From NCBI GenBank assembly GCA_963665845.2, contig OY762492.1:2560001-2624000 (forward strand): a DNA stretch of 64,000 nucleotides, given 5' to 3'. Shown here in pieces: positions 16,911 through 37,432 of this stretch. Each line of letters starts with the position of its first letter. Position 1 is the first letter of the stretch. The notes beneath the pieces were generated by a model. It saw only the letters and a list, made by a program, of their open reading frames with translations. It was not told the origin of the DNA and did no database searches. This DNA comes from Candidatus Poribacteria bacterium (GTDB taxonomy: Bacteria > Poribacteria > WGA-4E > GCA-2687025). The translations under genes were made by a program, and so were the position numbers.

Positions 16911-16949
16911 CGTACGGGGCGCGTCAAGCGGGCGGAGCCGCCAAGCCCG

Positions 16950-18440
16950 TCAATCGATACCGATCGCGCTAAGGTCGATATCGGTCATGCTATGGTCGAT
17001 ATCGATCTCGCCAAGGTCAAGCTCATACACCTTCAGATTCGGGTCGTTCTCACGCCCCCACATATGCTCACGCTCGAATTCAGTGAACGGTTTGAAACCG
17101 ACCTCCAATGCCCTTTGAATCTCTTCAAGCTCGCTCCGCAGCGACTCCGTATCGCTTTCGGACGACGCGCCGCTCAGACGCGCTTGTAAATCTGCCTGCT
17201 TTTGCAGCAGCGTCTCCTTGAACTGAAGTTGCTCTTCTGAATATACGCGCCGCTTGCGGAATTTGATGATGTATTTTTCATGCGGAAGCATCCTGATGAC
17301 CTGGCCGTTTGGCAAGGTCCTCTTTTGATGCGGCATCTCGTCTGGATCCAGCCTGCCCGACCGCACCAGTAAAACCGCTGGATGAAAATCGTACCAAGCA
17401 GGATATCGCGGATCGTAGCTGGAATTAGCCCCCTGTTGATGATAGTACTTTTTCAGCGCTTCCCACACATAAGCGTATTCTGGGTCGTGTTCAATCTTAG
17501 CTTTCATCGCGTCGGTGGCTTTGTTCATTGCCTCTTGCTTCGGCAGTATCTGAATCAGCGCGTCGTATTCGACGCCTGTGATACGGGCGCATTCGCCCAT
17601 CGCGTCGTCCCAAGACAGCAGCTCCACAGGAGGCTTGGAGCTTTTGACTTCGGGTGTTTCGCTTGTCGAAGGATTGGCAGCGCCGGACGCTTCCTCTTCC
17701 ACCTCTGGGATGAATCGAGGCGTCTGATCTTCAGGTCTGAGCGGCGAATCGTCCAGCCTAGGCGACTGGGCAGCGTCGGGCGCGCTTCTTTCGTCCGCTG
17801 GTTCGCGTCCGCTCAATAGCATCCACAGCGCGGCAGCGGCCGCCAATGCAACCGCGGTTCCGACAATTTTTGTAGTGTTCGACACGAGCAAAACTCCTCC
17901 CCAAGCCGCGCGTTTGAAGCCTCCAAACACGAAGACCAGCGCGGCGCCTATCGATTTGAATATCTTGCGAAGACGTTTTTTGGCGCGGTGAATTCGCAGC
18001 GCGACCGCCGAATAGGACAACCCATGCCGTGCCTGCAGTTCAGCGTAGGAGGCGTCCTCCATATACCGGGCGCGCAGCAGCTCTCGATCCGAGCGGCTCA
18101 ACGACTCCATCGCTTGATGAAGGCGCCGATTCCGCTCCGCCTCTTCGACGGCGTCATGCGGCGTTCTCCAGTCGATCAGTTCGGGAATATCCTCCATCGG
18201 CTCTTCCCGCTTTTTTCGATTCCATTCCCGCGCCAGGTTGCGCGCAATGGCGGCGATCCATCGGTCAAACTTCTCCGCGTCGCGCAGCTGATGCTGTTTG
18301 GAATAGGCGCGCAGCAGCGTTTCTTGAACGAAATCGTCCAGATCGGCGCGGTTGCGCAGCTTCCGCTGTCCGATGCGCCGGATATTCTCCATCTGGCTCA
18401 AGGCGGCGTCGTCGAAGTTGAACCGATCGGATAAGCTCAT
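16950..18440 (-). CDS. ECF sigma factor with TM segment and long extracytoplasmic C-terminal extension
   Basis: sigma2 DLDDFVQETLLRAY...FDRWIAAIARN; sigma4 SLSRSDRELL...SYAEL...HRAKKRLRK; hydrophobic IVGTAVALAAAAALWMLL; GGGAGG SD. Confidence 0.9.
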   Translation of the reverse strand: MSLSDRFNFDDAALSQMENIRRIGQRKLRNRADLDDFVQETLLRAYSKQHQLRDAEKFDRWIAAIARNLAREWNRKKREEPMEDIPELIDWRTPHDAVEEAERNRRLHQAMESLSRSDRELLRARYMEDASYAELQARHGLSYSAVALRIHRAKKRLRKIFKSIGAALVFVFGGFKRAAWGGVLLVSNTTKIVGTAVALAAAAALWMLLSGREPADERSAPDAAQSPRLDDSPLRPEDQTPRFIPEVEEEASGAANPSTSETPEVKSSKPPVELLSWDDAMGECARITGVEYDALIQILPKQEAMNKATDAMKAKIEHDPEYAYVWEALKKYYHQQGANSSYDPRYPAWYDFHPAVLLVRSGRLDPDEMPHQKRTLPNGQVIRMLPHEKYIIKFRKRRVYSEEQLQFKETLLQKQADLQARLSGASSESDTESLRSELEEIQRALEVGFKPFTEFEREHMWGRENDPNLKVYELDLGEIDIDHSMTDIDLSAIGID

Positions 18441-18519
18441 AAAACGTCCTCCCTACCCTAATTGATGAATGGGGGCGGTTTATTTTACATCTTTTTGCGT
18501 TTTATGTGCGTTCTAGGGC

Positions 18520-18915
18520 GCGGCGGCTTTCTAGACTTCCCCCTTGAAAGGGGGGCTGGGGGGGTTTCCGCGGACGCGGCGGCTTTCTGGACTCCCCCCT
18601 TGAAAAGGGGGGTTTTTGCGGACGCGGCGGCTTTCTGGACTCCCCCTTGAAAAGGGGGGCTGGGGGGGTTTCCGCGGACGCGGACAGCGCGCGCGGCGGC
18701 TAAGATTCCCGCTTACGCGGGAATGACGATCCGGGGAAACGGCGCGGATGGGAGACGCAAAGCGTTGGGGGTTGCCTCTGGATTCCCGCACGTTTTACCG
18801 CAAGGGCGGGAATGCATGCCCTCGCGGAAGCGGGGGACGGCCTGGTTGGCAACGCTTTTTCCCATGAATAAAGCGATCGTCGGTTCAAATGTCCCAACTA
18901 AAGGCGTTAGGTCAG
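18520..18915. repeat. Composite repeat: three tandem CCCCCTTGAAAAGGGGG units, ATTCCC-N8-GGGAAT palindromes and one MITE-B end
   Basis: GCGGCTTTCTRGACTCCCCC..TTGAAA(A)GGGGG three times; ATGTCCCAACTAAAGGCGTTAGGTCAG at 18889-18915. Confidence 0.85.
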
Positions 18916-18973
18916 AGCCTAGCGGTTGACAAAAAAACGCGCCCCCGCCCAAAAGCGCGGCTATTATAAAGAC

Positions 18974-19687
18974 ATGCTGCGTCGACTTTCACAACTCGCG
19001 TTCAGCTTCGCCGGCATCAACGCCGCGGGTCTTGCCGCCTTCACTGTTCTTGTCTGGCGGCTCGCCGAAAAAGGTTTTGAGCTGATACAGCTGACCTATA
19101 TCACCATCCTTGCGAACGTGTATATCTGCGTCGTGCCGCATGAGCCGCTGCTGCTTTACTACGGCAGTAAAGATATGTGTGGTTTCTTGAGCGCCTCCAT
19201 CGTTTCCGCCTACGGCGCCTTCGCCGCCGGCGTCATCGATTACGAAACGCTGCGCCCCTTTTTTAGACATGACCGCGTGCGGAAGCTGTACGCCGACCGC
19301 CGCTCCTATCAAATCGGCGTGCGCTGGTTTTACAAAATGCCGTTCCTGGTCATGTTTCTCGCCGCCTTGACGCCCGCGCCGTTGTTTCCGTTTAAGTTCA
19401 TGGCGTTCTCGTCCGGCTACGGCAAATACCGGTATCTCGCCGCCATCACGCTGGGGCGGTTCCCGCGCTATCTGCTTTATACATGGGTTGCTGCTCAGTG
19501 GAACATCCCGAACTGGGCGATTGTTGCGCTCGTTCTGTTGACGGCGGCGGTCGCGGGGTGGGGGTTCCTGCGGGCGAAGTGGAAAAGCCGCCGTTCAGAC
19601 CAAGCGCAGGAGGAACCGTATGAAAAAACGCCCGACGAAAACGCGCCGCTTCAATCGCGCCAAAAACAGGACTCCGCCGGCGCCTGA
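18974..19687 (+). CDS. DedA/YqaA (VTT, SNARE-associated) family membrane protein
   Basis: VPHEPLLL, AALTPAPLFPFK, GRFPRY; several TM segments. Confidence 0.8.
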   Translation: MLRRLSQLAFSFAGINAAGLAAFTVLVWRLAEKGFELIQLTYITILANVYICVVPHEPLLLYYGSKDMCGFLSASIVSAYGAFAAGVIDYETLRPFFRHDRVRKLYADRRSYQIGVRWFYKMPFLVMFLAALTPAPLFPFKFMAFSSGYGKYRYLAAITLGRFPRYLLYTWVAAQWNIPNWAIVALVLLTAAVAGWGFLRAKWKSRRSDQAQEEPYEKTPDENAPLQSRQKQDSAGA

Positions 19688-20835
19688 TACGCCACATCCA
19701 GCTCCGGCGTCTCCAGTTTCTCCTGTCCCCGATGCAGCGACTCCACCCCAAAATACACCTGCCCCGTCGTCAACAGCGTCCGCTCCACCGGATAGGTTGG
19801 GCTGCCCGTCAGAAACATCTTTTCAAGGTTGTCGCACAGCGGGCTGAAGAAGCTGGCTAGGGTGGTGTGTCGAGGCGGCATCGGCAGATACATCTGCGTC
19901 GACTGAATGGAGCCGTCCCCCATGCGCGCCGCGAAGTTGAAGTCCAGGAGAAAGCCGTTCAGCAGGATCATCGTCGTTTTCAACCCGTCCCGATGCTCCA
20001 TCAGATAGGCGGTCGGATCTGGGCAGACCTCCTGAATGCGGTCGTTTTGGAAGTCGATGTCGGAGCTGTCGCCTCGGCGGGGCTGGCGGGTGAAGCTGCG
20101 GGCGACGGCGGCGGTCAACAGCTCTTCATCGAACGCGCCGTCCTCCATCGCTTTCCAGACCGCTTCGCCGCGCAGCGCGTGAAGCGACTTGAGTCCGACC
20201 TCGCCGTCTCCGCGCCGCTCCACCATGCATTGCGCCGTTTCCAGCCCGTGAAAGTCGTAGCTGTCGACGCCGCCGTAGCAGGCGCAGATCGCTTCGCGTA
20301 TCTCGACGCCGAGCGGAAACTCCAGCGCCGGCAGCCGCCAGGTCACCGGCAGCGACGACCCCGCCATGAACGCGAATCCAAGCTCGCGCGAGATGTCGAC
20401 CATCTCAACCGCCTGATTCCAGTCGTACGAGAGATGCTTGTCGTTGAAAACGGGAACCGCCCTGCCGCTGTCTCTAAATACCTCAACCATCTCCATAAAA
20501 AATTCGTAGCGCGGGTAGAGATGCTGCCCCTTGTCGTTGCGTTCGTATTGCCCGTGTTCGCCGATGATGAGAACGCCGTCGACGGCAAGCGTTTCGCCGC
20601 CCAGCGTCAGCGCTTCGGCGATGGTCGGGTAGATGGGGACGCCGAAACGCTCGGAGCGGTCTTGGCTCAAGTCGCGCTCATCCGTCTGGTCAACATACAT
20701 GGACGCGATCTGAACGTCAGGGGTGTGATGCCGCCCCTGCCATCCGTAGCCTTCTAGGAATCGGTCGACAATATGCTGCGCGTGGGAGTATTTGTGGTAG
20801 ATCGTGTTGAGAGCGGCGATTTTTTTCGGGGGCAT
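19651..20835 (-). CDS. Conserved hypothetical protein, probable Gfo/Idh/MocA-like oxidoreductase fold
   Basis: SHAQHIVDRFLEGY, PTIAEAL, VDGVLIIGEHG, FNDKHLS, AGSSLP, YDFHGLE; GGAG SD before ATG 20835. Confidence 0.75.
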   Translation of the reverse strand: MPPKKIAALNTIYHKYSHAQHIVDRFLEGYGWQGRHHTPDVQIASMYVDQTDERDLSQDRSERFGVPIYPTIAEALTLGGETLAVDGVLIIGEHGQYERNDKGQHLYPRYEFFMEMVEVFRDSGRAVPVFNDKHLSYDWNQAVEMVDISRELGFAFMAGSSLPVTWRLPALEFPLGVEIREAICACYGGVDSYDFHGLETAQCMVERRGDGEVGLKSLHALRGEAVWKAMEDGAFDEELLTAAVARSFTRQPRRGDSSDIDFQNDRIQEVCPDPTAYLMEHRDGLKTTMILLNGFLLDFNFAARMGDGSIQSTQMYLPMPPRHTTLASFFSPLCDNLEKMFLTGSPTYPVERTLLTTGQVYFGVESLHRGQEKLETPELDVAYQAPAESCFWRD

Positions 20836-20892
20836 GTCTCGTCTCCTTTTGACCACGTTAGCATAGGCGGCGGAGCGGTTCAAGCCTGCCGT

Positions 20893-21062
20893 CTGACCCC
20901 ATGACGAAAAAGTTGGGACATTTGAACCAACGATCGCTCTATTCATGGGAAAAAGGCGCCGCCAACCAAACGGTCATTCCCGCGCAAGCGGGAATCCAGA
21001 GGCGCCGCAGAAACCGTCCGCGTTCGCCAAGCGGAATGTCCCAACTAAAGACGTAAGGTCAG
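20893..21062. mobile_element. MITE family B (TIR CTGACCYYAyg..tAAAGTTGGGACAT)
   Basis: CTGACCCCATGACGAAAAAGTTGGGACAT ... ATGTCCCAACTAAAGACGTAAGGTCAG; about 170 bp; central ATTCCC-N8-GGGAAT. Confidence 0.8.
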
Positions 21063-21070
21063 AATCTCGC

Positions 21071-21099
21071 TTTACAATCCAAGGCGCAGGGGCTATACT
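21071..21099 (+). promoter_or_regulatory. Sigma70 promoter, probably giving a leaderless transcript
   Basis: TTTACA-17 bp-TATACT; ATG at 21106 follows after a 6-nt gap, with no SD. Confidence 0.6.
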
Positions 21100-21105
21100 A
21101 TGGGC

Positions 21106-21642
21106 ATGAAAGATACGCAGGATCAGCTCATCGACAACCAAGCCAAAATCATGCTGCGGCAGGATGAGTCCGCTGAAACGCTAAAACGGCTTGTCAATAT
21201 AGAGTCACGGGATCACGTCCTAAACTTAAAATTCAAGCTTGGTTTTCTTTTGGTTCTGTTTTTCATCGACAGAATGGACATACGCAAATTCAAACTTATG
21301 TGGAGCTGCATTACGCCGTACCGCGAAGTATTTCTGGATAAAATTTATGCCGCCAAAGATGATGGAACGCTCACTTTGGAACAAACCAGGCGGATTCTAG
21401 CGGTTGATCTGGTTGCGGTCGGCAAGCAAATTGGCGCCAAGAGCGACACATGGATCGCCGTCGAAGCGTCCAGCGTCATTGAGAAAAACGACATAGACCG
21501 CGTAAAAGAATCGGCAAACCTTCTGAGCCTTGTTTATGAAGCCGACTCTATCGCCGCCGCTGTAGGTTACGAGATCCCCGACCAGACGCGCCGATACGCC
21601 GAAGCGTCTGACGTAGAGATCATCCTTCTTCAATCGTCGTAA
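21106..21642 (+). CDS. Hypothetical protein, possible PD-(D/E)xK-like fold
   Basis: VDLVAVG...WIAVEASSVIEKNDIDRV pattern; lower GC than flanks. Confidence 0.6.
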   Translation: MKDTQDQLIDNQAKIMLRQDESAETLKRLVNIESRDHVLNLKFKLGFLLVLFFIDRMDIRKFKLMWSCITPYREVFLDKIYAAKDDGTLTLEQTRRILAVDLVAVGKQIGAKSDTWIAVEASSVIEKNDIDRVKESANLLSLVYEADSIAAAVGYEIPDQTRRYAEASDVEIILLQSS

Positions 21643-21857
21643 ACCGCCCGAACTCGATCCTCCGCCGCCGCGTCCAGCGACGTCACGGCGACATGAAAAA
21701 AATCTGCCTCCAGCTCTATCGAAATCGTCAAGGAGCGCAAACCCGCCTCAAAAAGGGCGTCCTCCACCAAACGCCCCACCGCGCGGGCGCGCAAACCTTC
21801 ATGCCGCGCCCCTGGCGCAAAGCGCGGGTCTAGCCGCTCCGTCTCATTCTTCCGCAT
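21630..21857 (-). CDS. Small hypothetical protein
   Basis: 75-aa ORF overlapping the TPR gene stop; fills the intergenic gap; no motif recognised. Confidence 0.4.
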   Translation of the reverse strand: MRKNETERLDPRFAPGARHEGLRARAVGRLVEDALFEAGLRSLTISIELEADFFHVAVTSLDAAAEDRVRAVYDD

Positions 21858-22656
21858 CGTCCATCTCCTCAAACAGCTCCGAGCCGCGCAATATATCTTC
21901 CCGCGACAACACATCCATCGGGCCGGTCGTCTGATTCGCCAGCTCGTCAAACGCGGGATTTCCTCTCAACGGGGCTAAATTCTCATCTTCCGCCGCCGTC
22001 CGCCCCCAGCCCGTATTCAGCTCCGCCGCCGCGAGCGCATACTTCAGCCCTTTCTCCAGATCGCCCGCTTTAACCGCAATCACGGCGAGGCAGTAGCTCG
22101 GCGCCGGCCAGTCGGGGCGCGCTTTCGCCGCCGCTTCAAAATGCGGACGCGCCGCCTCATACTGCTCCCTCCCAAAATACAGCTGCGCCAGGTCAAAATG
22201 CGCCTCCACATAATCGGGTTTCAGCGCAATCGCGCGAAGCCAGGACGCCGCCGCTTCGTCCGCGCGGTTCGGCGGCCCGTCCATATACGCGCAGCCCATG
22301 TTGTAGTGGATGAAAGCGTCCTCAGGGTCTAAATCAAGAGCGGCGCGGTAGGCGCGCTCCATCTCCTCCGCGTCGCCCGCCTCGCGCGCGTGGAATGCCT
22401 GCCATAGATGCGTCTGGAGCAGTCTGTGCCGCGCCTCCTCGTCCGCATCGTCCTTTTTCAAAAGCCGTTTGTAGATCTCCTGCGCCGCCTCATACCGCTC
22501 CATAAAAGAATGTATTCGCGCGAGCAGATGCAGGGCGTCTAGATCGTCAGGCTTCCGCTCCAGTCGCTCCTCCACAATCGCTTTCGCCCCCTCTAGGTCG
22601 TCCGCTTCAAGCGCCTTGGCCGCCCTTGAAAGCCATCGCGTTCTCAACAAGTTCAT
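21844..22656 (-). CDS. Tetratricopeptide repeat protein
   Basis: Multiple TPR motifs (PDDLDALHLLA, PEDAFIHYNMG, PDYVEAHFDLA). Confidence 0.88.
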   Translation of the reverse strand: MNLLRTRWLSRAAKALEADDLEGAKAIVEERLERKPDDLDALHLLARIHSFMERYEAAQEIYKRLLKKDDADEEARHRLLQTHLWQAFHAREAGDAEEMERAYRAALDLDPEDAFIHYNMGCAYMDGPPNRADEAAASWLRAIALKPDYVEAHFDLAQLYFGREQYEAARPHFEAAAKARPDWPAPSYCLAVIAVKAGDLEKGLKYALAAAELNTGWGRTAAEDENLAPLRGNPAFDELANQTTGPMDVLSREDILRGSELFEEMDDAEE

Positions 22657-24122
22657 GCTTCCTCCTCCAGCGCTTCCATGAGTCGCCCGCGCCGCGCATA
22701 CAGCCGCTCATACGCCTCGACCGAGTCGCGTTTCGGCTCAAACAGCTTCGTCGGCGTTTTCAGGCGTTTCCATGCTTCTTCGGTTGAATCGACCGCGCCG
22801 ACGCCGACCATCGCCAGCGCCGCCGCGCCCAGCGCCGTCACCTCCGCCGCGCCTGACAGCTCCACCGGCATGTTCAACACATCCGCCAAGATTTGTCCGA
22901 ACAGCTCATTTTTGGCAAACCCGCCGCCGACCAGCAGCGACGACGCCTCGGCGCCCATCGCTTCTTTGGAGTCGCGCGTCTGAAAGGCGAGACCCTCCAG
23001 AACCGCCCTGACAGCGTTTCCAGGCTCCATTCCATCCGCCCAGCCGAGAACGGCGCTGGGAACCTGCGGGTTGGGTCCTGTGCCGGCGACAAAGGTCGGG
23101 TTGATGAGGACGCCGCCGCTTCCCGGCTCCGCCTCCGCCGCGAGCGCGGACGCCTCCGCCGCAGACGACCCCGGCAGCCACATCCGCCGCACAAGGTCGA
23201 ACGCCAGCCCGCCAATCATATGCCCCTGTATGTTGAAACCGCCCAGGACGCCCTCGTTTTGAGGGTTGCGCTGCCACAGGATATTGCGCCGCCGCTGCGC
23301 TGACGACACGGACGCCTCGTCCCTAGAGCCGACCAGAATGCTCCATGTGCCGGTCGAATACAGCAGGCTTTCCCGCAGATCTCGGCATGCGCCGGCGACC
23401 GCTACCGCCGTGTCATGCCCGCCCGCGCATACGGGGATGCCCGCCGGCAATCCAGAGATCGTTGACGCCTCCTGGCGAACCTCCCCCGCAATACCGCTCG
23501 GACAGCCAACCTGTTTCGGAAATTTATTGGGAACATCGAACGCCTCAAACAGCCGCTCCGCCCAGGCGTTTCGTTCAAGGTCGTACAGCATGCTGGTGGT
23601 CGCCATCGTCTGCTCGGCGGCGCGTTCGCCGGTCAGCCGCTCAACAAACAGCTGCGGCATCATCAAGAAAGCGTCCGCCTCCTCCAAAACTTCCGGGCGC
23701 CGCTCGCGCAGCCAGCGCAAGCTAAACGCCGTATTAAAATAGAACGGCGGCGCGCCCGTCTGTTCATAAACCGCGTCCAGATCCATGCGCTCTTCCGCCC
23801 ACTCCAGCTGCTCCTGCGTTCGCTGGCACTTCCACGAGATGACGGGATAGATCAGCTCCCCGCGCGCGTCTACAGCCCCCCAGCAGACGCCGAAGGTTGT
23901 GATGTTCACCGCGCGCGGCTCCGCTTCATGCTCGCTCAACAGCTCGCGCGTCAGCTCGCAAAAATGAACCCAAAAACGCTCCACCGGCCATATAAGCCCG
24001 TCTTCAGTTTGCGCCGCGTCGGTCGGCCGCGACTTCGACCCTAAAACGCGCCCGTCCAACGCGACCAGCAGAACCGAAGCGTTTGTCGCTCCGCAGTCCC
24101 ATACCACGATGCCTTCCTGCAT
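22653..24122 (-). CDS. FGGY-family carbohydrate kinase (fuculokinase/xylulokinase-like)
   Basis: DCGATN, PVISW, GGHDTA, STGTW, EGLAFQ, VGGGFAKN. Confidence 0.9.
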   Translation of the reverse strand: MQEGIVVWDCGATNASVLLVALDGRVLGSKSRPTDAAQTEDGLIWPVERFWVHFCELTRELLSEHEAEPRAVNITTFGVCWGAVDARGELIYPVISWKCQRTQEQLEWAEERMDLDAVYEQTGAPPFYFNTAFSLRWLRERRPEVLEEADAFLMMPQLFVERLTGERAAEQTMATTSMLYDLERNAWAERLFEAFDVPNKFPKQVGCPSGIAGEVRQEASTISGLPAGIPVCAGGHDTAVAVAGACRDLRESLLYSTGTWSILVGSRDEASVSSAQRRRNILWQRNPQNEGVLGGFNIQGHMIGGLAFDLVRRMWLPGSSAAEASALAAEAEPGSGGVLINPTFVAGTGPNPQVPSAVLGWADGMEPGNAVRAVLEGLAFQTRDSKEAMGAEASSLLVGGGFAKNELFGQILADVLNMPVELSGAAEVTALGAAALAMVGVGAVDSTEEAWKRLKTPTKLFEPKRDSVEAYERLYARRGRLMEALEEEA

Positions 24123-24176
24123 GCGCTCCGCCTTTCCATGCTTGAACGCCGTTTAGCCCGCTCCGTTCGTCTTATC

Positions 24177-27100
24177 TCACCGCAGCGCGACGATGATGAC
24201 CGCCGCCGCGGCCGCCGTTGTGATCGCAAAGCGCAGCAGATTCGCCGCGTTCGCAAATCCGCTCGACACCTTCTCCGACACAACGCGCGTCGGAACGATG
24301 ATCGTATCTCCCGGCGACAGGCTCTTTAACTGATCCGACCGCGTGAAACTGCCGTTCACATGCGCCACATAAATCCGCTCCATGTCGGCGTCCGCGGAGG
24401 CGCCGCCGGCGACTTCGATGTAGTCGTTCACGCTCAACCCTTTCACGTATACGGTGGCGATATTCGCCGGCACCGCGCCCGTAACGGCGATGACATTGCG
24501 CAGCTTCGGCACATGAATCACATCGTTCGGCTCCAGCAGCAGATCGCGCTCTCCGCCCGGACGACTCAACGCTTCCGGCAGGTTGATCACAATCCGTCCG
24601 ATCGGAAACATCTGCTCAATTTCACGCGCGGGAGTCACCAAACTAACGGACGGCGTCCAATCGGACGCGCCGGCGCCTTCCAGTATCGGAGCCGCCCCGC
24701 CGCCCAGAACGCCCGCCGACGCCGACGCAATATCGGTCAACGAATCATCGATGCCCTGCGGCTGAATTCCCGCCTCATACTGCGCCTTCGCCGCCTGACG
24801 CAGATACTCCTGATTCGACAACAGCTTCTGAACCTCCCACACCGTTTCAATCGATTCGCGCTGCGCCTCGTCCAAAAGATGCTCCGGACGGCGGCTCATA
24901 GACGCCCCCTCCAGATACGCCGACTCGGTCGTTCCGCCCGCCCGTTTGACGATGTCGCTCAACCGATCGTCCCCCTCCAGAACATACGAGCCGGGAAACG
25001 CCACCTCGCCTGTTACCTTCACCGAACGCGGGACCTCCTGAAACGTCCCGCTCTTGCGCACCGCCGCCACATCCCCCGGCTCCAACACAAGATTATGCGC
25101 GGGATCGCCCGCCATCGCCGCCTCAAGATCGACCCGCACAATCGGCGACCCTTTCTCCTGGCGCGCATGGGCGATCTCAACCGTCTTGCCGTAACCCGGC
25201 GTCAAACCGCCCGCCAGCATGATCAGGTCTCGAAGCGTCATACCTTCAAAATACGGGTAGGTATCCGGACGCTGAACGGCGCCGTACAGCTGCGTCGTTT
25301 TTTCTGGGCTAAAGACCGCCTCGCGCATTGTCCAGACGCGCACCGCGTCGCCGGGGCGCAGCTCCAGGTCGGCTTCGGCGTCCCCAGCGAGCGCCTTTTC
25401 CAGATCGATGGGAACGGCGATGCGGTTTTCATAATCGTCCAGATACCGGTACAGATCGGCGCGTTTGAGATAGGCGTTCGGCATGACCCCGCCCGCCTGA
25501 AACAGCAGCATGGAGACGCGCATGCCGTCCTGTATCGGATAGCTTCCGCCGCGCTGGACAGCTCCAACCGCCTGCGCCTCGCTGGGCGGGCGCCATTTCG
25601 TTTCTCCATAACCGTAAACGATGATCTCGTCCTCCGGCATGAGCGTTATGTCCGCCTCCCCGCCGACCGACAGCGCGCCTTCCAGGTCGATGACCAGCGC
25701 CGATTCGACGCGCGCATGGCTCGGCGCCTTCCGCAGAAGCAGCGCCGTCGGTTCGCGTTCCGCTTTGGCGCCGCCGGCGCGCATCAGGGCGTCGCTGACG
25801 CGCATATTTTGGGTGAAAGGCACCCACCCCGGCGACTGAACCGCGCCCGTAACCTTCACCGACTGCGGCGGTTCCCAGACCGCCTCGTCATAACGCAGAA
25901 TCAACAGCGCGTCGCCGTCCCGCAGGATCGGATCGTTTTTGTCCAGCTGAAGCAGGTTCACCGGCTCGCTGAACGCCAGCCGATTCTGAATGTCGGCGCG
26001 CAGAAGCAGGGCGCGCTCCCGGTAAGCGTCCGGCGCCGGACCGCCCGCCGTCCGCAGCAGGTCCGAGACGCGCATGCCGTCCGCGCGCGTGTAATTCCCT
26101 GGACGCTTCACCGCGCCCTGCGCCGCGATGGTTCGCGCAGGGGCGTCCATCGCGTCCGTCTCCGCATAGACGGTCAGCCTGTCGAACGGCTCAAGCGGAA
26201 TGTCCGCGTCCGCGCCGCCCGACAAAGCGTCTTCAGGGTTGACGGGAAGGAGCGTCAAGGTGAGTCCGTCCGCGTTTCGACGGAACAGATCGGCGCGCGC
26301 CCGGTAAGCCCCCTCCCGCAAACCGCGCGCCGCCTTGATCAAATCCGAGACGCGCATGCCCTCCTTCAGCTCATACTGCCCCGGGCGCTTCAGGTAGCCG
26401 GACGCCTGAACCGTGTTGACAGGCTCCGACAGCAGCGGGTGGATCATAATATGGTCGCCGTCCTGAAGCGGCGGGAGATTGGACATGCCGCCCGTCACAT
26501 CTAGGTTGAGAAGTATGCGTTCCGCGCCGCCCCGCGCCGAGTCGACCTGAACGCTTTTCGCAAACCCGCTTGGGCGAATGCCGCCCGCCATTTCAAACAG
26601 CTGCGCGTAATGCTCCCCCTCCTTCAGCTCGTAGATGCCGGGGCGCCCCACCTCGCCCTGTATGGACGCTTGCCGTCCGACCGGCGCAAAATAGATCAGG
26701 TCGCCGTCGCGCAGCGGCTGCTCCTGATCCGCCTTGCCATGCAGCAGAAAGTCGTACATATCGATCTCTATCGTCTGCGCGCCGCGCTTCAAGAAGATTT
26801 TGCGCATGGAGCCGAGATCGTTCGGACCGCCGCAGATTCGAAGCAGGTTAAAAAGAGACGCCGCCGAGCTCAACGCATACGACCCCGGCAAATACGCATG
26901 CCCCGCCACCGCCGCCTGCACCGTTTCAAGCGACTCGAAGGTGACGAACAGCTTCGTGTCGGAGTAGGTTTCGCGCGCCGTCAATTCGCGCAGCATCTGC
27001 TCCACCTCGCCGAGCGTCTTGCCGACCACAACGAGCCGTCCGTGCGGCGGCGCGTTCACTTCCCCCTCCGGCGACACCGCAAGGCGCATCCGCTGCGGCT

Positions 27101-28490
27101 CCAGATTGCCCGCCGCCGACCACCAAACCGCGCGGAGAACATCCCCCGGCGACACGATGCGCCGCTGCGGGATATTCAAAAGCGCGTTCGAGTCGAGCTG
27201 GTCAAGCGGGCCGATATAGCCTGTCACCGCATTTCGAAGAAGCGTTTCAGGTACAAGCGCCGGCTGCGGAGTCGGCTGAGTCGGTTGAGTCGGCGGAACA
27301 GCGCCGGTTCCTGAAGGCGCCGTCCCTGGCGTCGGGGCGGGGGCGGGAGCCGTTCCCTGCGCCGCTTCCAGTTCCAGCATTTTGATTCGGCGCGCCGTCT
27401 GTCGAATGCGTTCGCGCCCCGCTTCAAAAAACTCGTCCCCAAACCGCCGCAGCGTCAGGCGCGATTCGTTCATCATCTCCATGCGCGCTTCCCGCCGGGC
27501 GCGCGCGCGCATCGCTTGATCGGCGTTCGCCGGCTGTTCAGCGCGCATCGTCGGAACGATGAGTATGTCGCCCGGCTCCAGCGTTTCAGGGTTGCGCTCC
27601 AGCGTTCCGTCGCGCCGGGCGGCGTAAACCCGTTCGATCTCTCCGTTTTCGGTCGCTCCGCCTGCGAGGCGGATGTAATCTTCCGCCGTCAGCTCCGGCT
27701 GAAAACCAAACGCCCCCGGCCGCTGCACGGCGCCCGTTACCAGTATGCGCTGCGGCGCGCCGCTCCTCTCCGACGGCTCGGCAAAGGGGCGAAGCTTCGG
27801 CGGCGGCGCCTGACCCTCCTCAAGCGGCTTGAACTGCGCCAGTACCGCGTCCCCCGGCAAAATCTGCGAGACCCGCTCGGCTCGAAGCAGTTGTCCGTTT
27901 GGACGAAGAATCCATAGCCCGCCAATGTCCGCCTCGGCTGAAAGACCGCCCGCCGCGTTCAGATAGTCGCGCAGCGTCCATCTCGGCTTATGATGAACCC
28001 GTATCGGGCTGTTCACCGCCCCGGTGATTCGCACCCGCCGCTCGTCCATTGATTGCGGCAGCGCAAGGCGCGGTCCCCCCGCCGTCTCCTCTTCAGGCAG
28101 CGGCGACAGCTCCGATTCCAACGTTGACAGTTCCAAGATGCGTTCCCCGCCCGAAAGCGGCAACCCAGGCGTCAACGGCAGGATCGTTCCCTCCAGCGTC
28201 GCTATGCGCACATTGTCTTGGACAATTTCAGACGGCTCCGCGCCGGCGAAAAACAGGTAGTCCAGCGGCGTCAATTGCTCCTCAAAACGGAACCGCCTGC
28301 CGCGCTCCGCGCCCTTGACCCAGACAAACACATACGGGCGGAGCGCCTCAAGAGACTCGGCGGACGCCTCCGCAATTTGCGGGCTTGCCAGCGCTTCGAG
28401 CGGCGTCTGGTCTTCAACGCCGTTCTCCTCCGCCGCGCAGAACGCCGCCGCCAACATCACACATACAGACGATATGAACCGCCGCCTCAA
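24177..28490 (-). CDS. Multi-SLBB polysaccharide export protein (KpsD/Wza-like)
   Basis: Signal peptide; more than 10 repeats of V.GAV..PG.Y....GMRVSDL...AGG; PGD motifs; C-terminal hydrophobic helix. Confidence 0.88.
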   Translation of the reverse strand: MRRRFISSVCVMLAAAFCAAEENGVEDQTPLEALASPQIAEASAESLEALRPYVFVWVKGAERGRRFRFEEQLTPLDYLFFAGAEPSEIVQDNVRIATLEGTILPLTPGLPLSGGERILELSTLESELSPLPEEETAGGPRLALPQSMDERRVRITGAVNSPIRVHHKPRWTLRDYLNAAGGLSAEADIGGLWILRPNGQLLRAERVSQILPGDAVLAQFKPLEEGQAPPPKLRPFAEPSERSGAPQRILVTGAVQRPGAFGFQPELTAEDYIRLAGGATENGEIERVYAARRDGTLERNPETLEPGDILIVPTMRAEQPANADQAMRARARREARMEMMNESRLTLRRFGDEFFEAGRERIRQTARRIKMLELEAAQGTAPAPAPTPGTAPSGTGAVPPTQPTQPTPQPALVPETLLRNAVTGYIGPLDQLDSNALLNIPQRRIVSPGDVLRAVWWSAAGNLEPQRMRLAVSPEGEVNAPPHGRLVVVGKTLGEVEQMLRELTARETYSDTKLFVTFESLETVQAAVAGHAYLPGSYALSSAASLFNLLRICGGPNDLGSMRKIFLKRGAQTIEIDMYDFLLHGKADQEQPLRDGDLIYFAPVGRQASIQGEVGRPGIYELKEGEHYAQLFEMAGGIRPSGFAKSVQVDSARGGAERILLNLDVTGGMSNLPPLQDGDHIMIHPLLSEPVNTVQASGYLKRPGQYELKEGMRVSDLIKAARGLREGAYRARADLFRRNADGLTLTLLPVNPEDALSGGADADIPLEPFDRLTVYAETDAMDAPARTIAAQGAVKRPGNYTRADGMRVSDLLRTAGGPAPDAYRERALLLRADIQNRLAFSEPVNLLQLDKNDPILRDGDALLILRYDEAVWEPPQSVKVTGAVQSPGWVPFTQNMRVSDALMRAGGAKAEREPTALLLRKAPSHARVESALVIDLEGALSVGGEADITLMPEDEIIVYGYGETKWRPPSEAQAVGAVQRGGSYPIQDGMRVSMLLFQAGGVMPNAYLKRADLYRYLDDYENRIAVPIDLEKALAGDAEADLELRPGDAVRVWTMREAVFSPEKTTQLYGAVQRPDTYPYFEGMTLRDLIMLAGGLTPGYGKTVEIAHARQEKGSPIVRVDLEAAMAGDPAHNLVLEPGDVAAVRKSGTFQEVPRSVKVTGEVAFPGSYVLEGDDRLSDIVKRAGGTTESAYLEGASMSRRPEHLLDEAQRESIETVWEVQKLLSNQEYLRQAAKAQYEAGIQPQGIDDSLTDIASASAGVLGGGAAPILEGAGASDWTPSVSLVTPAREIEQMFPIGRIVINLPEALSRPGGERDLLLEPNDVIHVPKLRNVIAVTGAVPANIATVYVKGLSVNDYIEVAGGASADADMERIYVAHVNGSFTRSDQLKSLSPGDTIIVPTRVVSEKVSSGFANAANLLRFAITTAAAAAVIIVALR

Positions 28491-28628
28491 TAGACACGCT
28501 CCCGGAAATCACAATATATGCCCTATCATAAGCGCAACGGGGGCAGTATGCAACCCGCCGTCCTGAACGGCAGTACGCCCATACGATGATCTTCATTTTT
28601 TAACCCTAAAGCGTCCGCGCCGCCCGTC

Positions 28629-32278: not shown

Positions 32279-32342
32279 CGCCGTCAATGTACCGACGCAT
32301 CATGCAAATCGAGACGAAACGACGCAGCGCAAGGAGCCTCCG

Positions 32343-33164
32343 ATGATCATCGACGCGCACACCCATTTTTACGACCCGACGCGCCCTGAAGGAGTCCCAT
32401 GGCCGCCGAAAGAGAACGCGCTTCTGTACCGCCCGACGCTGCCGGATCGGTTCAAGCCGCTTGCCGAACCGCTCGGCGTTACAGGAACGGTTGTCGTGGA
32501 GGCAAGCCCATGGGTTGAGGACAATCAATGGATACTAGACCTGGCGGAAGAGGAGCCGATGATCGTCGGCTTTGTCGGTAACCTGGACCTGAAATCGGAG
32601 CAGTTTGAAGCGCGGCTGAACAGGTTTGCGCGGCATCCGCTTTTTCGGGGAGTCCGCGCCCATGCGTCCGCGCTGAACGGAACGGCGGCGGCGCTGCGCC
32701 TGTTAGAAGAGGCGGACCTGTCGCTTGATCTGCATGTGAACGCGGAGTCGCTGCCGAACGCGGTTCGCGCCGCGGCGGCGTTTCCGAACCTGCGCATCGT
32801 GTTGAATCATACCGCGCAGGCGCGGGTTGACGGCGAACCGCCGGACGCTCTCTGGATGGAACGCATGGAAGCGGCGGCGCGGCGGGAGAATCTGTATTGC
32901 AAGGCGTCCGCGCTGGCGGAGACGGCGGCGCGGCAGCCTGCCCCCTCGGAGGCGGAGTACTACCGCCCCGTTCTGGACGCGCTCTGGGGGCTGTTTGGAG
33001 AGCGGCGGCTTATTTACGGCAGCAACTGGCCGGTCTGTGAACGGGCAGCCGATTACAAGACCGTTTTTCAGATTGTGGACAACTATTTTTCTGAAAAGGG
33101 AGAGCGCGCGCGTCAACGCTATTTTGCTGAAAACGCGCGCGCCGCCTACAAATGGATCAACTGA
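32343..33164 (+). CDS. Amidohydrolase-2 family protein (sugar lactonase-like)
   Basis: IIDAHTHF, VLNH, YCKAS, YGSNWPV, ENARAAY. Confidence 0.9.
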   Translation: MIIDAHTHFYDPTRPEGVPWPPKENALLYRPTLPDRFKPLAEPLGVTGTVVVEASPWVEDNQWILDLAEEEPMIVGFVGNLDLKSEQFEARLNRFARHPLFRGVRAHASALNGTAAALRLLEEADLSLDLHVNAESLPNAVRAAAAFPNLRIVLNHTAQARVDGEPPDALWMERMEAAARRENLYCKASALAETAARQPAPSEAEYYRPVLDALWGLFGERRLIYGSNWPVCERAADYKTVFQIVDNYFSEKGERARQRYFAENARAAYKWIN

Positions 33165-33166
33165 CC

Positions 33167-33360
33167 GGCAGTCTCTATAGGCGATGATGTTGTTTTTAGA
33201 GCCTTTTGAAATTCGGAAGCTTTCTGGAAAAACTCTGGATTCCCGCTTACGCGGGAATGCATGTCCCCGCGGAAGCGGGGAACGAATAGCTCAATCACAG
33301 CGGTTGGGGCGCGGTTTCTGGACTCCCCCCTTGAAAAGGGGGGCAGGGGGGGTTTTGAGC
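33167..33360. mobile_element. MITE family A copy lacking the second TIR
   Basis: GGCAGTCTCTATAGGCGATGA followed by the same internal sequence as 63548-63740. Confidence 0.75.
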
Positions 33361-33377
33361 GCGGGTTGCGCTTGGTT

Positions 33378-33473
33378 TTGAACTAGGATGAAAGGATGAT
33401 TAAGATTGCCAAGAGCGCCGCTCACGGGAATTTCTTTGGCAATCTTTTCAATCTTGGCAATCCTAGTTCAGAC
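33378..33473. repeat. Nonamer-based inverted repeat (TGAACTAGGAT...AATCTTGGC-AATCCTAGTTCA)
   Basis: TGAACTAGGAT/ATCCTAGTTCA arms with internal AAGATTGCC/GGCAATCTT nonamers. Confidence 0.7.
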
Positions 33474-33623
33474 AGCAGACGGTTTCGGCGGCGCCTCTAG
33501 ATTCCCGCTTACGCGGGAATGCATGTCCTCGCGTAAGCGGGGGACGGATTGGTTGGCGGCGCCTTTTTCCCATGAATAGAGCGATCGTCGGTTCAAATGT
33601 CCCAACTTTAGGCGTGAGGTCAG
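33474..33623. mobile_element. MITE family B partial copy (one TIR)
   Basis: ATGTCCCAACTTTAGGCGTGAGGTCAG end plus shared internal TTTTCCCATGAATA. Confidence 0.7.
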
Positions 33624-33695
33624 AGAATAAAAGCGTTGCGCATTGGCGCCCATATGCGCTAACATAGACAGAAGCGAAGAAAGAGGAGCGTTCCA

Positions 33696-34115
33696 TTGAA
33701 GCGCGTGTATTGGATACTGGGCTGCGTCTTGGCAATTGGAGCCGTCGCGGGGGCGGCGCGGATTGTTCAACGCGGCGGGCAGGAGAAACGGCAGGCGGCC
33801 GTTGAGCGGATCGCCGACCTTGAGTTTGCGCTGGATCGATACGCCAAAGCGACCGGCGACTACCCCTCCACCGAGCAGGGGCTGGACGCGCTCTGGGAAA
33901 AACCGACCGGGCTGCCGAGGCCTGTCAACTGGGACGGACCCTATATTGACGATCCGAACTTCAACGACCCGTGGGGCAGCCCGTATGTGTATCGGCGTCC
34001 AGGGCGGAACGACCCGTACGCCTTCGATCTGTTCTCGCGCGGCGCCGACGGCATTGAAGGCGGACGCGGAGAAAACGAAGATGTTGTCAACTGGCTCCGC
34101 CCCGAAGACCTGTGA
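33696..34115 (+). CDS. gspG: Type II secretion major pseudopilin GspG-like protein
   Basis: ALDRY...YPSTEQGLDAL..KP, NWDGPY, DPWG.PYVY..PG, DLFSRGADG..GG.GEN.D..NW; lacks the G|FTLIE prepilin motif. Confidence 0.75.
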   Translation: MKRVYWILGCVLAIGAVAGAARIVQRGGQEKRQAAVERIADLEFALDRYAKATGDYPSTEQGLDALWEKPTGLPRPVNWDGPYIDDPNFNDPWGSPYVYRRPGRNDPYAFDLFSRGADGIEGGRGENEDVVNWLRPEDL

Positions 34116-34138
34116 GCGCTTGATGCGGGTTTCATAAT

Positions 34139-36214
34139 ATGGGTTTTTTAAACCCGCTGCTGCTTCTCGGCATACTCGCCGCCGCCGCCCCGGTGCTGAT
34201 CCACTTGTGGAGCCGGCGGCGCGCCCGGACGCTGCAGTTCAGCGCGCTGCGGTTTCTCATGGAGGCGGCGCAGCAGTCCGCCCGGCGGTTTCGTCTTGAA
34301 CAGCTGCTGCTTCTGGCGCTGCGCGTTCTGGCGCTCGCGCTCATTGCGCTGGCGATGGCGCGCCCCGTTTTGAGAGGAGCCGCGCTGTTCGGCAACCCGC
34401 GCGCCCAGACAACCGCAATCATCGTGTTAGACCAGTCCGCAAGCATGGGTTACGAAGGCGTGGACGGCGTTCCGTTTGAAAAAGCGAAAGCGCGCGCGCT
34501 TGAAATCCTGCGCTCGCTTCAACCAGGCGACGCCGCCTCCGTGATACTCATGTCGGATCGGCAAACGACGCTTTTTGAACCCCCGACAACGCAGATCCGC
34601 GAAGCGGAACGCGCCATCGAATCGGCGCCGCTGCGTCTGCGCGGGACAAGCCCCGAATCGGCTCTTGAGCGCGCCGCGGAGCTGGTGGAACGTTCCCAGT
34701 CGCCGAACCGAGAAATCTATATTTTAAGCGACTTCACCGCGAACGGATGGCGCAATGCGCGCGTCCCCATCGAGTCGGCGCGCGTTTTCATGATGCCGTT
34801 CCGCGCCGTCTCCGCCGGACCTGTTGAGAACGCATACATCGCCTCGATACAGCCCGACAATCCGATTGTGGCGGCGGGTACGCCCGCCGTGTTTCGAGTG
34901 GAGCTGCGCAACACCGGCGGCGCGGCCGCCCAGAGGCGCCTTGAGTTCCGCGCGGGCGGAAAACTGAAAAGCGGCGCCGCCGTCACGATCCCGCCGGAAT
35001 CAAGCGTCGTCAAAGAGTTTCAGCATGCGTTTGAAGCGGCGGGCAGATACGAAGTGCGCGCTACCCTTGACCAAGACAGGCTTGCCGCGGACGATGAGCG
35101 CGCCGTTGTCGTTGAAGCGCTGGGGCAGATCGACGCCTATATCGTCGGCGACAACGCGCTGCATCTCGCGCTGGCGCTGAACCCGTCGCTGGATCCGCAG
35201 CCCGAAAGCGTGTACGCCGTCCGCCCTGTTCTGATCTCCAGCGAAGAGGCGCCCAGCCGCCCGTTTGACGCGGCGGATCTGCTCATTTTACAAGACCCGC
35301 CCCTGAACGACGAGCGGCTCAACAGCCGGCTGCGCAACCGCCTGTTGAGCGGGCAGCCGGTACTGGTTTTTCTCGGAGAGCAAGCCGATTCGACGGCGGC
35401 GCCGGACTGGCTGCCCGTTTCGGTCGGCGCTGTTCAGCAGTCGCAGGAGCCGTTGAAGCTGCGCCCTGCGCATCTATCGAACCCGTCCGCTGTCGATTCG
35501 TTACATCTGTTCGGCATTTTTGAGGGGGATCCATGGATGCGGCGGGGGGCGCCTTCGTTTTACCGCTATCGGCAGTTGACCCTCAAGCCGACAGCGCAGA
35601 TATTGTGCCGCTTCAGCGATGGAGAAACCGCTGTCGCTGTCGGGCGTTCCTTAGGGGGAGTGTGCGTCGCGGTGAACGCGCCAGGTTATGGGCAGGAAAG
35701 CTCTAACTTTCCGCTGAACCCGTCGTTTCCGCCGCTTGTTCAACAGCTGGCGTTTTACGCGCTGACGCCGCAGAACCCCCCCGCGCGGGCAGTTGAAGCG
35801 GGAAACGCCTACCGCCTTCCGTTGAAGCCGTCCGACCCGGCGGCGTTTGAAATCGAAGCGCCGGACGGCGAAAAGCGCTCCGTCGGACGAACGCCGGACG
35901 GAGCGGAAATGAATTACAGATGGACAGACGAAGCGGGGCTGTACCGCGTCGCCGGCAACGGCGGGTTCGCCGAGATGTTTGTCGTGAACGCGCCGGTTGA
36001 CGAGTCGAACCTGGCGCCGCTTCCGCGCGGTCAGGCGTTGAACGCCGTCCAAGGCAGCGCCGCATGGGTCGACTCGGACGAGCGGCAAGAGACGGCGGGC
36101 TGGGACCTTCAACAGGAGCGGCTGGGACGAGAGCTGTGGGCGGAGGCGCTGCTTTTGGCGGCGCTGCTTTTGGCGGTGGAGTCGTTTCTTTCGAACCGAC
36201 CTTTAAAAGAGTAA
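34139..36214 (+). CDS. BatA (aerotolerance N-terminal) and vWA domain membrane protein
   Basis: FLNPLLLLG...PVLIHL, LLLALR..ARP, DQSASM MIDAS, ILSD, N...ESNL, C-terminal TM RELW. Confidence 0.88.
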   Translation: MGFLNPLLLLGILAAAAPVLIHLWSRRRARTLQFSALRFLMEAAQQSARRFRLEQLLLLALRVLALALIALAMARPVLRGAALFGNPRAQTTAIIVLDQSASMGYEGVDGVPFEKAKARALEILRSLQPGDAASVILMSDRQTTLFEPPTTQIREAERAIESAPLRLRGTSPESALERAAELVERSQSPNREIYILSDFTANGWRNARVPIESARVFMMPFRAVSAGPVENAYIASIQPDNPIVAAGTPAVFRVELRNTGGAAAQRRLEFRAGGKLKSGAAVTIPPESSVVKEFQHAFEAAGRYEVRATLDQDRLAADDERAVVVEALGQIDAYIVGDNALHLALALNPSLDPQPESVYAVRPVLISSEEAPSRPFDAADLLILQDPPLNDERLNSRLRNRLLSGQPVLVFLGEQADSTAAPDWLPVSVGAVQQSQEPLKLRPAHLSNPSAVDSLHLFGIFEGDPWMRRGAPSFYRYRQLTLKPTAQILCRFSDGETAVAVGRSLGGVCVAVNAPGYGQESSNFPLNPSFPPLVQQLAFYALTPQNPPARAVEAGNAYRLPLKPSDPAAFEIEAPDGEKRSVGRTPDGAEMNYRWTDEAGLYRVAGNGGFAEMFVVNAPVDESNLAPLPRGQALNAVQGSAAWVDSDERQETAGWDLQQERLGRELWAEALLLAALLLAVESFLSNRPLKE

Positions 36215-36229
36215 TCAGCGCCCCCTCCT

Positions 36230-36419
36230 CGTCCCCGCTGACGCGAGGGCATGCATTCCCGCGCCCCCTCATCGTCCCCCGCTTCCCCGTTTTCACGAGG
36301 ACATGCCCGCGAGGACATGCATTCCCGCCCCTGCGGTAAAACGCGCGGGAATCTAGAGGCGGCGCAGAAACCGTCTGTCTTTGTCCGTCGATATGTCCCA
36401 ACTAAAGATACAAGGTCAG
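36230..36419. mobile_element. MITE family B partial copy and repeat cluster
   Basis: GCATGCATTCCC units; ATGTCCCAACTAAAGATACAAGGTCAG end. Confidence 0.7.
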
Positions 36420-36505
36420 AGTCAACCCGCTTGCAAGCGGCGCGCATTTTAGTAAAATAAAGTTGACGCCCGTTTATCTTACAACCTTAATGTAAAGGAG
36501 CGGTC

Positions 36506-37432
36506 ATGAAACACCGCAGGTTCCTCATTGGCAAAATCGCATGCGTTCTGTTGACGGTCGGCTGGTTGTTGCCGCTCAACGGATGCAACAAGTGGGCGGA
36601 CGATACTGAAAATGAAATTGAGCGGCGCGATTCGACGGCGCGGTCCATCAACGGGCTGAGACCAGAAGATCAAACGCCCCGCTACCGCCCTGCGCCGGAC
36701 CCTTCAGAATCGTTGTCTGAAGGCGGCGGCGCGTCCGCTTCACAGCAGAAAGAGAGCGCCGACTTCCAACCCACCTACGATTTCAAGACATGGGAAGACG
36801 CACTGGTAGCATACGCGCATCTGGTCGGCATCGAATACGACCATGTCATGAAGGAAGAGTTGCAAGATCTGCAAACGGGGTGGAAGCGACCGCCAACGCA
36901 GAAAACCATTCGCGCTTTTGCTGCAGGCAGAGCCGCGACAAGGGTATTTAAACGGTTTTACATGGAAAATAAGTACCCTGAGTTAAGGGCGGCGATCATG
37001 CCGTTTCACAAGGATGTCCCGAAAGCAGAATGGGATTCGGTAAAAATGTTGGCGCGCATCGGCAAGCTGCCCGCCTCCGATCTGCGCAACGAGATCAAGC
37101 TTCCGAACGGCAAGATGTACGATCTGAAGGAGAATACGGAGCTGGTCGTGAAGTTTCAAAAGCGGGGGAAGCTCACCGAATCGGGCAAGAAGGAGCTGGC
37201 GGCGTTTCGAGAGCGGGAGAAGGAGCTGCTGCGCCAGCTGGACGGTTCCCCGTCCGAAAGCGAGAGGGCGTCCCTGACCGAGGAGCTGGAATGGGCGCGC
37301 TCGGAGATTGAAACCCTAAGCGGCAAAGGTCCGCTGTTCGATTTCGTTTGGCGGTACGGGTTGGGCAATCCGAGCGATCCTGGCTATAAGGTGGTCGAGA
37401 TGGACCTGGGCGTCATTGAGCGGCGCGATTGA
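36506..37432 (+). CDS. Lipoprotein paralogous to the extracytoplasmic domain of the ECF sigma factor at 16950-18440
   Basis: AAAGGAG SD; lipobox-like LNGC; shares LRPEDQTPR, LPNG and DP..KV.E.DLG.I with the ECF extension. Confidence 0.8.
   Translation: MKHRRFLIGKIACVLLTVGWLLPLNGCNKWADDTENEIERRDSTARSINGLRPEDQTPRYRPAPDPSESLSEGGGASASQQKESADFQPTYDFKTWEDALVAYAHLVGIEYDHVMKEELQDLQTGWKRPPTQKTIRAFAAGRAATRVFKRFYMENKYPELRAAIMPFHKDVPKAEWDSVKMLARIGKLPASDLRNEIKLPNGKMYDLKENTELVVKFQKRGKLTESGKKELAAFREREKELLRQLDGSPSESERASLTEELEWARSEIETLSGKGPLFDFVWRYGLGNPSDPGYKVVEMDLGVIERRD

Follow-up and report, generated by a model that had tools for sequence, protein, structure and literature searches.

It is in IutY of Pseudomonas putida (group ECF243) where, according to the passages on membrane-tethered extracytoplasmic function (ECF) sigma factors in PMC8999054, the only tested activation route of such a protein is found: the outer part of this hybrid sigma/anti-sigma factor is trimmed by Prc, and RseP frees the sigma factor (PMC5411451, PMC8999054). 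In IutY, the outer part belongs to the anti-sigma domains of cell-surface signalling and acts together with an outer-membrane receptor, and the passages on it in these two papers make no mention of an internal start. ECF57 of the Planctomycetes, as portrayed in the part of PMC7826278 devoted to it, has a conserved Cys pair in sigma2/sigma4, a C-terminal extension with about two membrane helices and WD40 or homeodomain-like parts, and no conserved promoter, and its release from the membrane was proposed. In parallel, the actinobacterial groups ECF48, ECF52 and ECF53 (e.g., SCO4117) appear in PMC8999054 as membrane-tethered factors with a zinc-finger anti-sigma (ZAS) domain after sigma4, a proline-rich linker and an outer domain, for which activation by proteolysis was proposed. 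Among other genes, a Shine-Dalgarno (SD) sequence plus an in-frame internal start at a domain boundary was shown experimentally to give a C-terminal product, ArcB-C, in arcB (10.1101/520783), and the relevant passages of 10.1101/2023.05.02.539157 likewise report experiments on the internal start of rpn, which gives RpnS, has a variable C-terminal part and has a free-standing paralogue, ypaA. Here we describe an extended ECF sigma factor gene of Candidatus Poribacteria, located in a stretch of 64,000 nucleotides (contig OY762492.1, positions 2,560,001 to 2,624,000; hereafter the window), which carries a conserved SD sequence and start codon at the junction between its sigma part and a predicted exported domain that recurs in a lipoprotein encoded 18 kb away. 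Tethered ECFs have usually been treated as one gene giving one protein, a view that a conserved second start would change, since each gene would then have two products. The Poribacteria are known as sponge symbionts, and the present host is uncultured.

Like IutY, as far as the passages cited describe it, the Poribacteria protein would be a single chain that runs from a cytosolic ECF through one membrane helix to an outer domain; unlike IutY, its outer domain matches no catalogued family, is also found in 18 free paralogues and appears to have been exchanged, no receptor gene is adjacent, and no FecR-type Pfam match was found in 49 family members, so that they lack the periplasmic part of the IutY type. 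With ECF57 it shares a C-terminal extension with a membrane helix, but its sigma part has no Cys, one helix is predicted and an upstream motif is conserved; moreover, ECF57 is given in the passage on it as exclusive to Planctomycetes, whereas the nearest named loci here belong to Candidatus Poribacteria and not to Planctomycetes (the top six of 31 related loci, best 86% identity). Like ECF48, ECF52 and ECF53, it is a tethered ECF with a linker and an outer domain, but no ZAS-like zinc finger was found in its extension, with neither a Cys before the helix nor a zinc-finger Pfam match. As in arcB and rpn, an SD sequence plus GTG or ATG lies at a domain boundary; those two genes, in the passages cited, give small soluble products of a kinase and a nuclease, whereas in the Poribacteria gene it is a sigma factor that contains the candidate start, and a membrane-anchored, exported protein is predicted to result. 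By analogy, the Poribacteria ECF may work like IutY, ECF57 or ECF52, yet it lacks their defining features where these are testable. In a search that left most subscription journals outside, no publication dealt with Poribacteria extended ECFs, and none with an extended ECF that has an internal start. We regard as new the domain family with three kinds of anchor, the apparent exchange of the domain at a Q-[S/T]-P motif of the syntenic locus and the promoter-like motif, whereas tethered ECFs, and internal starts elsewhere, were already known.

Constant cassette and candidate internal start

The ECF gene has the following features, given in window coordinates:

16950..18440, minus strand: extended ECF sigma factor gene, 496 aa, with sigma2, sigma4, linker helix, membrane helix, low-complexity linker and family domain
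18462..18491, minus strand: promoter-like motif TGTAAAA, 15 nt, CATCA, a candidate autoregulatory ECF promoter by predicted function
18207..18383, minus strand: sigma region 2, aa 20-78 (Pfam PF04542)
17970..18128, minus strand: sigma region 4, aa 105-157 (Pfam PF08281)
17895..17963, minus strand: moderately hydrophobic linker, aa 160-182, ending in R-A-A-W-G-G (hydropathy peak 1.42)
17894..17900, minus strand: internal SD sequence GGAGGAG within the W-G-G-V codons (-9.7 kcal/mol)
17883..17885, minus strand: in-frame GTG (Val186), a predicted start 8 nt after the SD sequence, ATG in the 10 sister ECFs
17814..17867, minus strand: predicted single transmembrane helix, aa 192-209, Ala-rich (hydropathy peak 1.93)
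17718..17732, minus strand: E-D-Q-T-P motif, aa 237-241, last element of the constant cassette; here the DNA identity shared with the syntenic orthologue is lost
16986..17639, minus strand: shared uncatalogued domain, aa 268-485, from alignments and model

With sigma2 and sigma4 only, a short spacer and no sigma3, the protein is an ECF (group 4) sigma factor, and it scores 75.2 bits with TIGR02937 against a cut-off of 42.9. Residues 1-165 are free of Cys, the sole Cys being Cys284. The hydropathy peak of the linker is followed by the basic residues K176, R177 and K191, and this segment is likely cytoplasmic or at the membrane surface. Because a single clear hydropathy peak is preceded by basic residues, and because some paralogues of the domain are lipoproteins, the domain is predicted to lie outside and the sigma part inside. 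A preliminary description of this DNA, made from the sequence alone, already spoke of a membrane-anchored ECF with no anti-sigma gene adjacent, and both points hold: there are sigma2 and sigma4 matches plus a single predicted transmembrane helix, and the gene is flanked downstream by hemB (ALAD) and upstream by a divergent VTT-domain gene. An assembly error does not explain the fusion, given that a contig of run X3 (possibly the source sample) covers 16883-18576 with zero differences; fusion of a sigma part to this domain recurs in locus L029 and in the proteins P0034 and P0067.

The key feature of the gene is the internal SD sequence, whose strength compares with -10.0 kcal/mol for the gene's own 5' site, the 16S end offering the CCUCCU complement. 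A start at the GTG of 17885 would yield a sigma-less product of 311 aa ending at 16950 and built like the free copies. In all 11 extended ECFs of the genome, the linker A-[W/F]-G-G is coded by GGA-GGN, with a start codon three to four codons on (ATG in 10, GTG in one); genome-wide, GGA-GGN makes up 9.9% of 6,852 Gly-Gly pairs. Across genomes, in a set of 70 extended-ECF open reading frames (ORFs) with 10 genome labels, an SD sequence of -9 kcal/mol or stronger precedes a start codon at 38 of 65 helix junctions, compared with 21 of 849 control windows taken from these ORFs, and such an SD sequence is present at one of the five junctions without a helix. A column test was made on 61 Poribacteria ECFs with a transmembrane helix, leaving out the five without helix, three Planctomycetota rows and one free copy. 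After clustering at 70%, GGA was found at 19 of 25 glycines (4.7 expected) and ATG or GTG at +4 to +6 codons in 27 of 34; after clustering at 50%, GGA was found at 10 of 15 glycines (2.8 expected, p ~3e-5) and ATG or GTG at these codons in 15 of 21, against a background of 12%. The GC content of third codon positions drops from ~0.7 to 0.42-0.53 near the internal start, and Val is kept at its position in L029 (as GTG) and in P0034. The free proteins C1:2457105 and C1:2458012 start at this same position, as does another at offset 4363 of L030 that has a linker remnant upstream, and P0019, a sigma-less protein of 298 aa on a 1.78-Mb contig, is 63% identical to the ECF domain and 60% to the predicted 311-aa product; a metagenome scan for the context of P0019 gave one match, L160, which was false. 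With a conserved SD sequence and start codon at the domain boundary, this is a candidate in-frame start, and we consider it quite probable that the site is truly used for translation.

The sigma domain, linker and predicted helix are common to all eleven extended ECFs, the ten sisters carrying the same cassette joined to other C-terminal domains; the C-terminal parts form about six unrelated groups, and at least three of these also have sigma-less copies (phmmer). Five extended ECFs with three kinds of C-terminal domain lie in tandem at G000:C1:1715994-1726880 (G000 being this genome), and at G000:C1:2454166-2458845 two tandem extended ECFs precede two sigma-less copies whose first residue is the internal Met. 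In one cassette, L002:700-1197, there is a piece resembling DnaJ_C (E 1.5e-4), and the DnaJ-like gene C1:304196 matches it too, which suggests the capture of a housekeeping fragment. The genomes G010, G011 and G012 have 33-45 ECF matches each, of which many combine a long extension with a related linker that finishes in A-F-G or A-F-A-Q.

Upstream of the gene start, [G/C]TAAAA, 15 nt, C-x-x-C-A is located 49-56 nt before the start codon in 10 of the 11 extended ECFs, the eleventh, without the motif, directly following another ECF; each of the ten motifs is in the top 1% of 2,233 genes (leave-one-out). The -10 variants track the sequence of the sigma2 loop among these ECFs, a correspondence expected for self-recognition. 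The free paralogues were tried as a regulon of the ECF and rejected, with one of 18 borderline (C1:270887, top 0.9-1.2%) and the others at background, in a search that operon-internal genes would escape. Two metatranscriptome runs held 5-6% of words, with contigs covering hemB, a relative's repeats and 119 nt of the ECF gene.

The E-D-Q-T-P motif that ends the cassette belongs to a wider pattern, given that a count of [EDQ][EDQ]Q[ST]P over 2,802 ORFs gives 25 occurrences. Of these, 21 come just past a predicted helix, a region that accounts for 5.8% of residues. The looser Q[ST]P is found in 34 of 448 N-anchored proteins versus 7.4 expected, many of the 34 being paralogous, and in 18 of 1,721 soluble proteins versus 16.8 expected. 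Its use as a DNA recombination site was rejected, since Gln is CAG in 17 and CAA in 17 of the 34 genes and Ser is both TCN and AGC; the codons vary freely, and therefore the constraint acts on the protein. The motif is perhaps a protein signal for cleavage or modification, possibly a processing signal specific to the lineage. It is also enriched behind the N-terminal anchors of further families (e.g., C1:456102, 1751956, 3485908, 3486978, 3405150 and 3405895).

The shared domain family and a probable exchange at the syntenic locus

The lipoprotein gene that shares the domain has these features:

36506..37432, plus strand: predicted lipoprotein gene, 308 aa, with signal peptide, lipobox, E-D-Q-T-P and family domain
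36431..36458, plus strand: sigma70-like site before the gene, TTGCAA, 16 nt, TAAAAT (9 of 12, a consensus match only)
36584-36586, plus strand: Cys27 of the lipobox L-N-G-C, kept in the orthologues L014 and L061
36665-36679, plus strand: E-D-Q-T-P
36764-37420, plus strand: family domain

A hydrophobic stretch precedes L-N-G-C27, as in a lipoprotein; Asn at lipobox position -2 departs from the textbook consensus, and the paralogue L019 carries an L-S-G-C lipobox. The collinear homology between the ECF extension and this lipoprotein, first proposed in the preliminary description, proved significant: ECF residues 234-480 align with lipoprotein residues 51-305 at 27% identity over 260 columns (E 1e-23, pairwise BLASTP), all five motif pairs then cited lie within the alignment, and a genome-wide phmmer search of 34,889 six-frame ORFs recovers the same relationship (E 7e-21). 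The domain consists of a helical subdomain, a hairpin with R-x-G-R-L-P and L-P-N-G, a beta-sheet with an optional coiled-coil hairpin, and a C-terminal D-L-G; its conserved residues are largely Gly, Pro and hydrophobic ones, besides R360, R363, N378, E291, D293 and D475.

When both domains were searched against the same ORFs, 19 family members were found in the genome, one fused to the ECF, three lipoproteins and 15 with an N-terminal hydrophobic membrane helix, which confirms that the family is a dispersed paralogous set, with 17 members beyond the ECF and lipoprotein pair. The family is present in 4 of 176 genomes of the phylum, with 17 scored matches each in this genome and in G013 of the same genus, one in G012 and one weak match in G006. 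Among 1.84 billion proteins, 64 representatives were collected, 43 of them with a membrane-helix start, three with a lipobox, one ECF, 16 fragments or unclassified and one spurious; P0065, a repeat protein (E 1e-5), was excluded as spurious. The domain family is thus nearly restricted to one Poribacteria genus. At G000:C1:1959400-1960391 (L022; ORF C1:1959537), a frameshift precedes the last strand, and the D-L-G motif is in another frame.

The earlier view that the domain, in both its fused and free forms, belongs to no catalogued family also stands, given that neither the extension nor the lipoprotein has a Pfam or NCBIfam match over the cut-off. For the shared domain, a profile search gave no PDB sequence match under E 0.02, the ESM Atlas gave no usable match, and Foldseek gave no match at E 0.001 for either domain model. 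The best VIA structure match reached Z 8.3, confined to a 52-residue hairpin, and the best for a member without the hairpin Z 5.4; these matches, generic helical hairpins, were rejected as an identity of the domain. The AlphaFold model of the ECF domain has pLDDT 86 and a protruding coiled-coil hairpin (residues 135-181 of the model), and that of L019, a natural member without this hairpin, has pLDDT 95. The domain is lineage-specific, expanded ~19-fold, and possibly a new fold, although the lack of matches is no proof of novelty.

At the syntenic locus L029 of a close relative, the flanks are 91-95% identical in DNA and the sigma part is 90% identical, while the domain is only 32% identical; the DNA identity ends at nucleotide 725, codon 242, at the end of E-D-Q-T-P-R, and returns past the stop codon. 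P0034 and P0067 have a sigma part 75% identical and a window-type domain 71% identical to those of the window. Five free orthologue pairs are 79-93% identical, and the best match in G013 (a genome 91% complete) to the window-type 3' half is 37%. The simplest reading of these comparisons is that the domain was replaced by that of a paralogue on the L029 lineage; recombination at the linker, with other members of the family, is the likely origin of the exchanged outer domain. If true, this syntenic exchange would rewire the sensory input while the sigma output stays fixed.

Proposed mechanism and alternative readings

We infer that the gene is a constant cassette (candidate promoter, ECF sigma, internal ribosome-binding site and start, predicted helix and Q-[S/T]-P linker) plus a variable exported domain, from which two products would likely be made, the sigma factor tethered to the membrane and a version of this protein that lacks the sigma part. 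The tethered sigma would likely be inactive until envelope proteases trim the outer domain, after which, as judged from IutY, a protease of the RseP type would cut the helix and free the sigma factor; the latter would then activate its own promoter and boost both products, so that the fusion would serve as a gauge that replenishes its cargo protein. Proteolytic release is the likeliest switch because of the analogy with IutY and because RseP and Prc are both encoded, with two genes each over the cut-off. Full RseP genes lie at G000:C1:3370067-3372868 and 3108365-3110056, with an adjacent RseP-like ORF of 323 aa. The whole chain, in which a one-component ECF with an exchanged domain would be freed by proteolysis, activate its own gene and both co-produce its cargo and monitor it, has in our opinion slightly less than an even chance of being correct. 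The second start, if true, would explain the interconversion of fused and free forms. More tentative, and rather doubtful as it stands, is the broader idea of a modular receptor diversification in Poribacteria, where the self-activating two-start cassette would capture and exchange exported domains from a library of dispersed paralogues at Q-[S/T]-P; each gene would then make a cargo and a sigma-tagged copy reporting the fate of this cargo, and library and sensors would arise from each other via fusion and fission.

Several observations weigh against this two-product mechanism. When the amino acids are kept fixed in the resampling, most single genes are non-significant on their own (p 0.06 for the window gene; 0.02-1.0 over the 70 ORFs), the synonymous sites of in-genome paralogues are unsaturated, a sigma4 control motif is also codon-conserved, and shared ancestry remains among the clustered representatives. 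Part of genus g3 (e.g., L091, L093, L097 and L110) has a weak internal-start signal or none, one same-genus paralogue, at offset 5370 of L030, has GGT-GGC, and the mRNA at the internal start is only modestly unfolded (rank 117 of 477). None of the four Planctomycetota loci that passed the profile filter, out of 10 long-ORF loci (G177), has a strong site, but this check neither extends nor refutes the pattern because those loci belong to other ECF groups. The -10 variants and the sigma2 loops both follow paralogue groups, so the promoter-like motif could be inherited upstream DNA; the presence of RseP and Prc says little because both are common in bacteria, as the controls showed; and the donor of the exchanged domain was sought and not found. 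The non-significance of most single genes, the unsaturated synonymous sites and the decay of the signal in some lineages would suit a relic, in which an ECF gene and a downstream membrane-protein gene were fused by stop loss, with the full-length sensor as only product and G-G-x-x-x-M/V kept for the protein. This is an unlikely account, given that GGA is retained across three families of the class with junction identity below 50%, that Met alternates with GTG-coded Val (in the window, L029 and L098), and that GGAG is found in other codon phases too, as TGG-AGT in L113 and CGG-AGC in L112. The same SD and start conservation would equally serve a short product that works as an intragenic inhibitor or stabiliser, pairing with the full-length ECF via the shared domain or helix and setting an activation threshold as in RpnS/RpnL, with free paralogues cross-talking likewise, which comes nearest to the decoy role once suggested for the lipoprotein. 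The Rpn genes-within-genes with variable C-termini, as far as the cited passages go, are a precedent (10.1101/2023.05.02.539157), and the protruding hairpin of the model would offer a pairing surface; however, L019 folds confidently without this hairpin, and at least five unrelated C-terminal domains, one of them DnaJ_C-like, would each need to oligomerise on the cassette, so we hold such an inhibitor to be not very likely.

Two further alternatives concern the domain rather than the start. Fast divergence under diversifying selection, instead of recombination, could have produced the difference at the syntenic locus, and other extended ECF pairs are also low at the C-terminus (31-55%), a comparison confounded by tandem paralogy and a truncated locus; however, the more distant sigma of P0034 keeps the window-type domain whereas the nearer sigma of L029 does not, and the DNA identity is lost abruptly, which makes this explanation improbable. 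The preliminary description had gone further in proposing that the ECF and the window lipoprotein form a dedicated module of sensor and partner, based on a homology that is real, with the stretch L-R-P-E-D-Q-T-P-R identical in both proteins and the short spacing of their genes. This pairing is largely refuted and retains a very small probability: the lipoprotein is one of 18 free copies and, when these are ordered by how much of their core they share with the ECF domain, comes 11th (25% identity versus 33% for the best), it lies on a different branch in a quick tree of 74 rows without bootstrap and with a long-branch warning for L012 and L029, and it has no ECF-type motif upstream, scoring at the 25th-34th percentile among the 2,233 genes. 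In G013, the proximity is not kept, the ECF orthologue being at ~10 kb of contig C35 and the lipoproteins at ~63 kb of C26, at least ~70 kb apart, and the lipoproteins stayed 79-84% alike between relatives while the ECF domain of L029 changed. One family copy within 20 kb is expected by chance in ~17% of cases (18 copies in 3.95 Mb). Rather than the dedicated partner of the ECF, the window lipoprotein is a further member of the family, anchored in another way.

Further observations in the window

Palindromic repeats resembling REP or MITE elements flank both genes (16700-16950, 18520-18900, 20909-21066 and 36220-36420), and one repeat element of 165 bp has far more than 100 matches across the genome. 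A GspG-like pseudopilin gene followed by a BatA/vWA gene (33696-36214) immediately precedes the lipoprotein gene. On the minus strand, at 24177-28508, an SLBB/Poly_export polysaccharide-export protein of 1,443 aa carries E-D-Q-T-P right behind its signal peptide, although it is unrelated to the ECF families.

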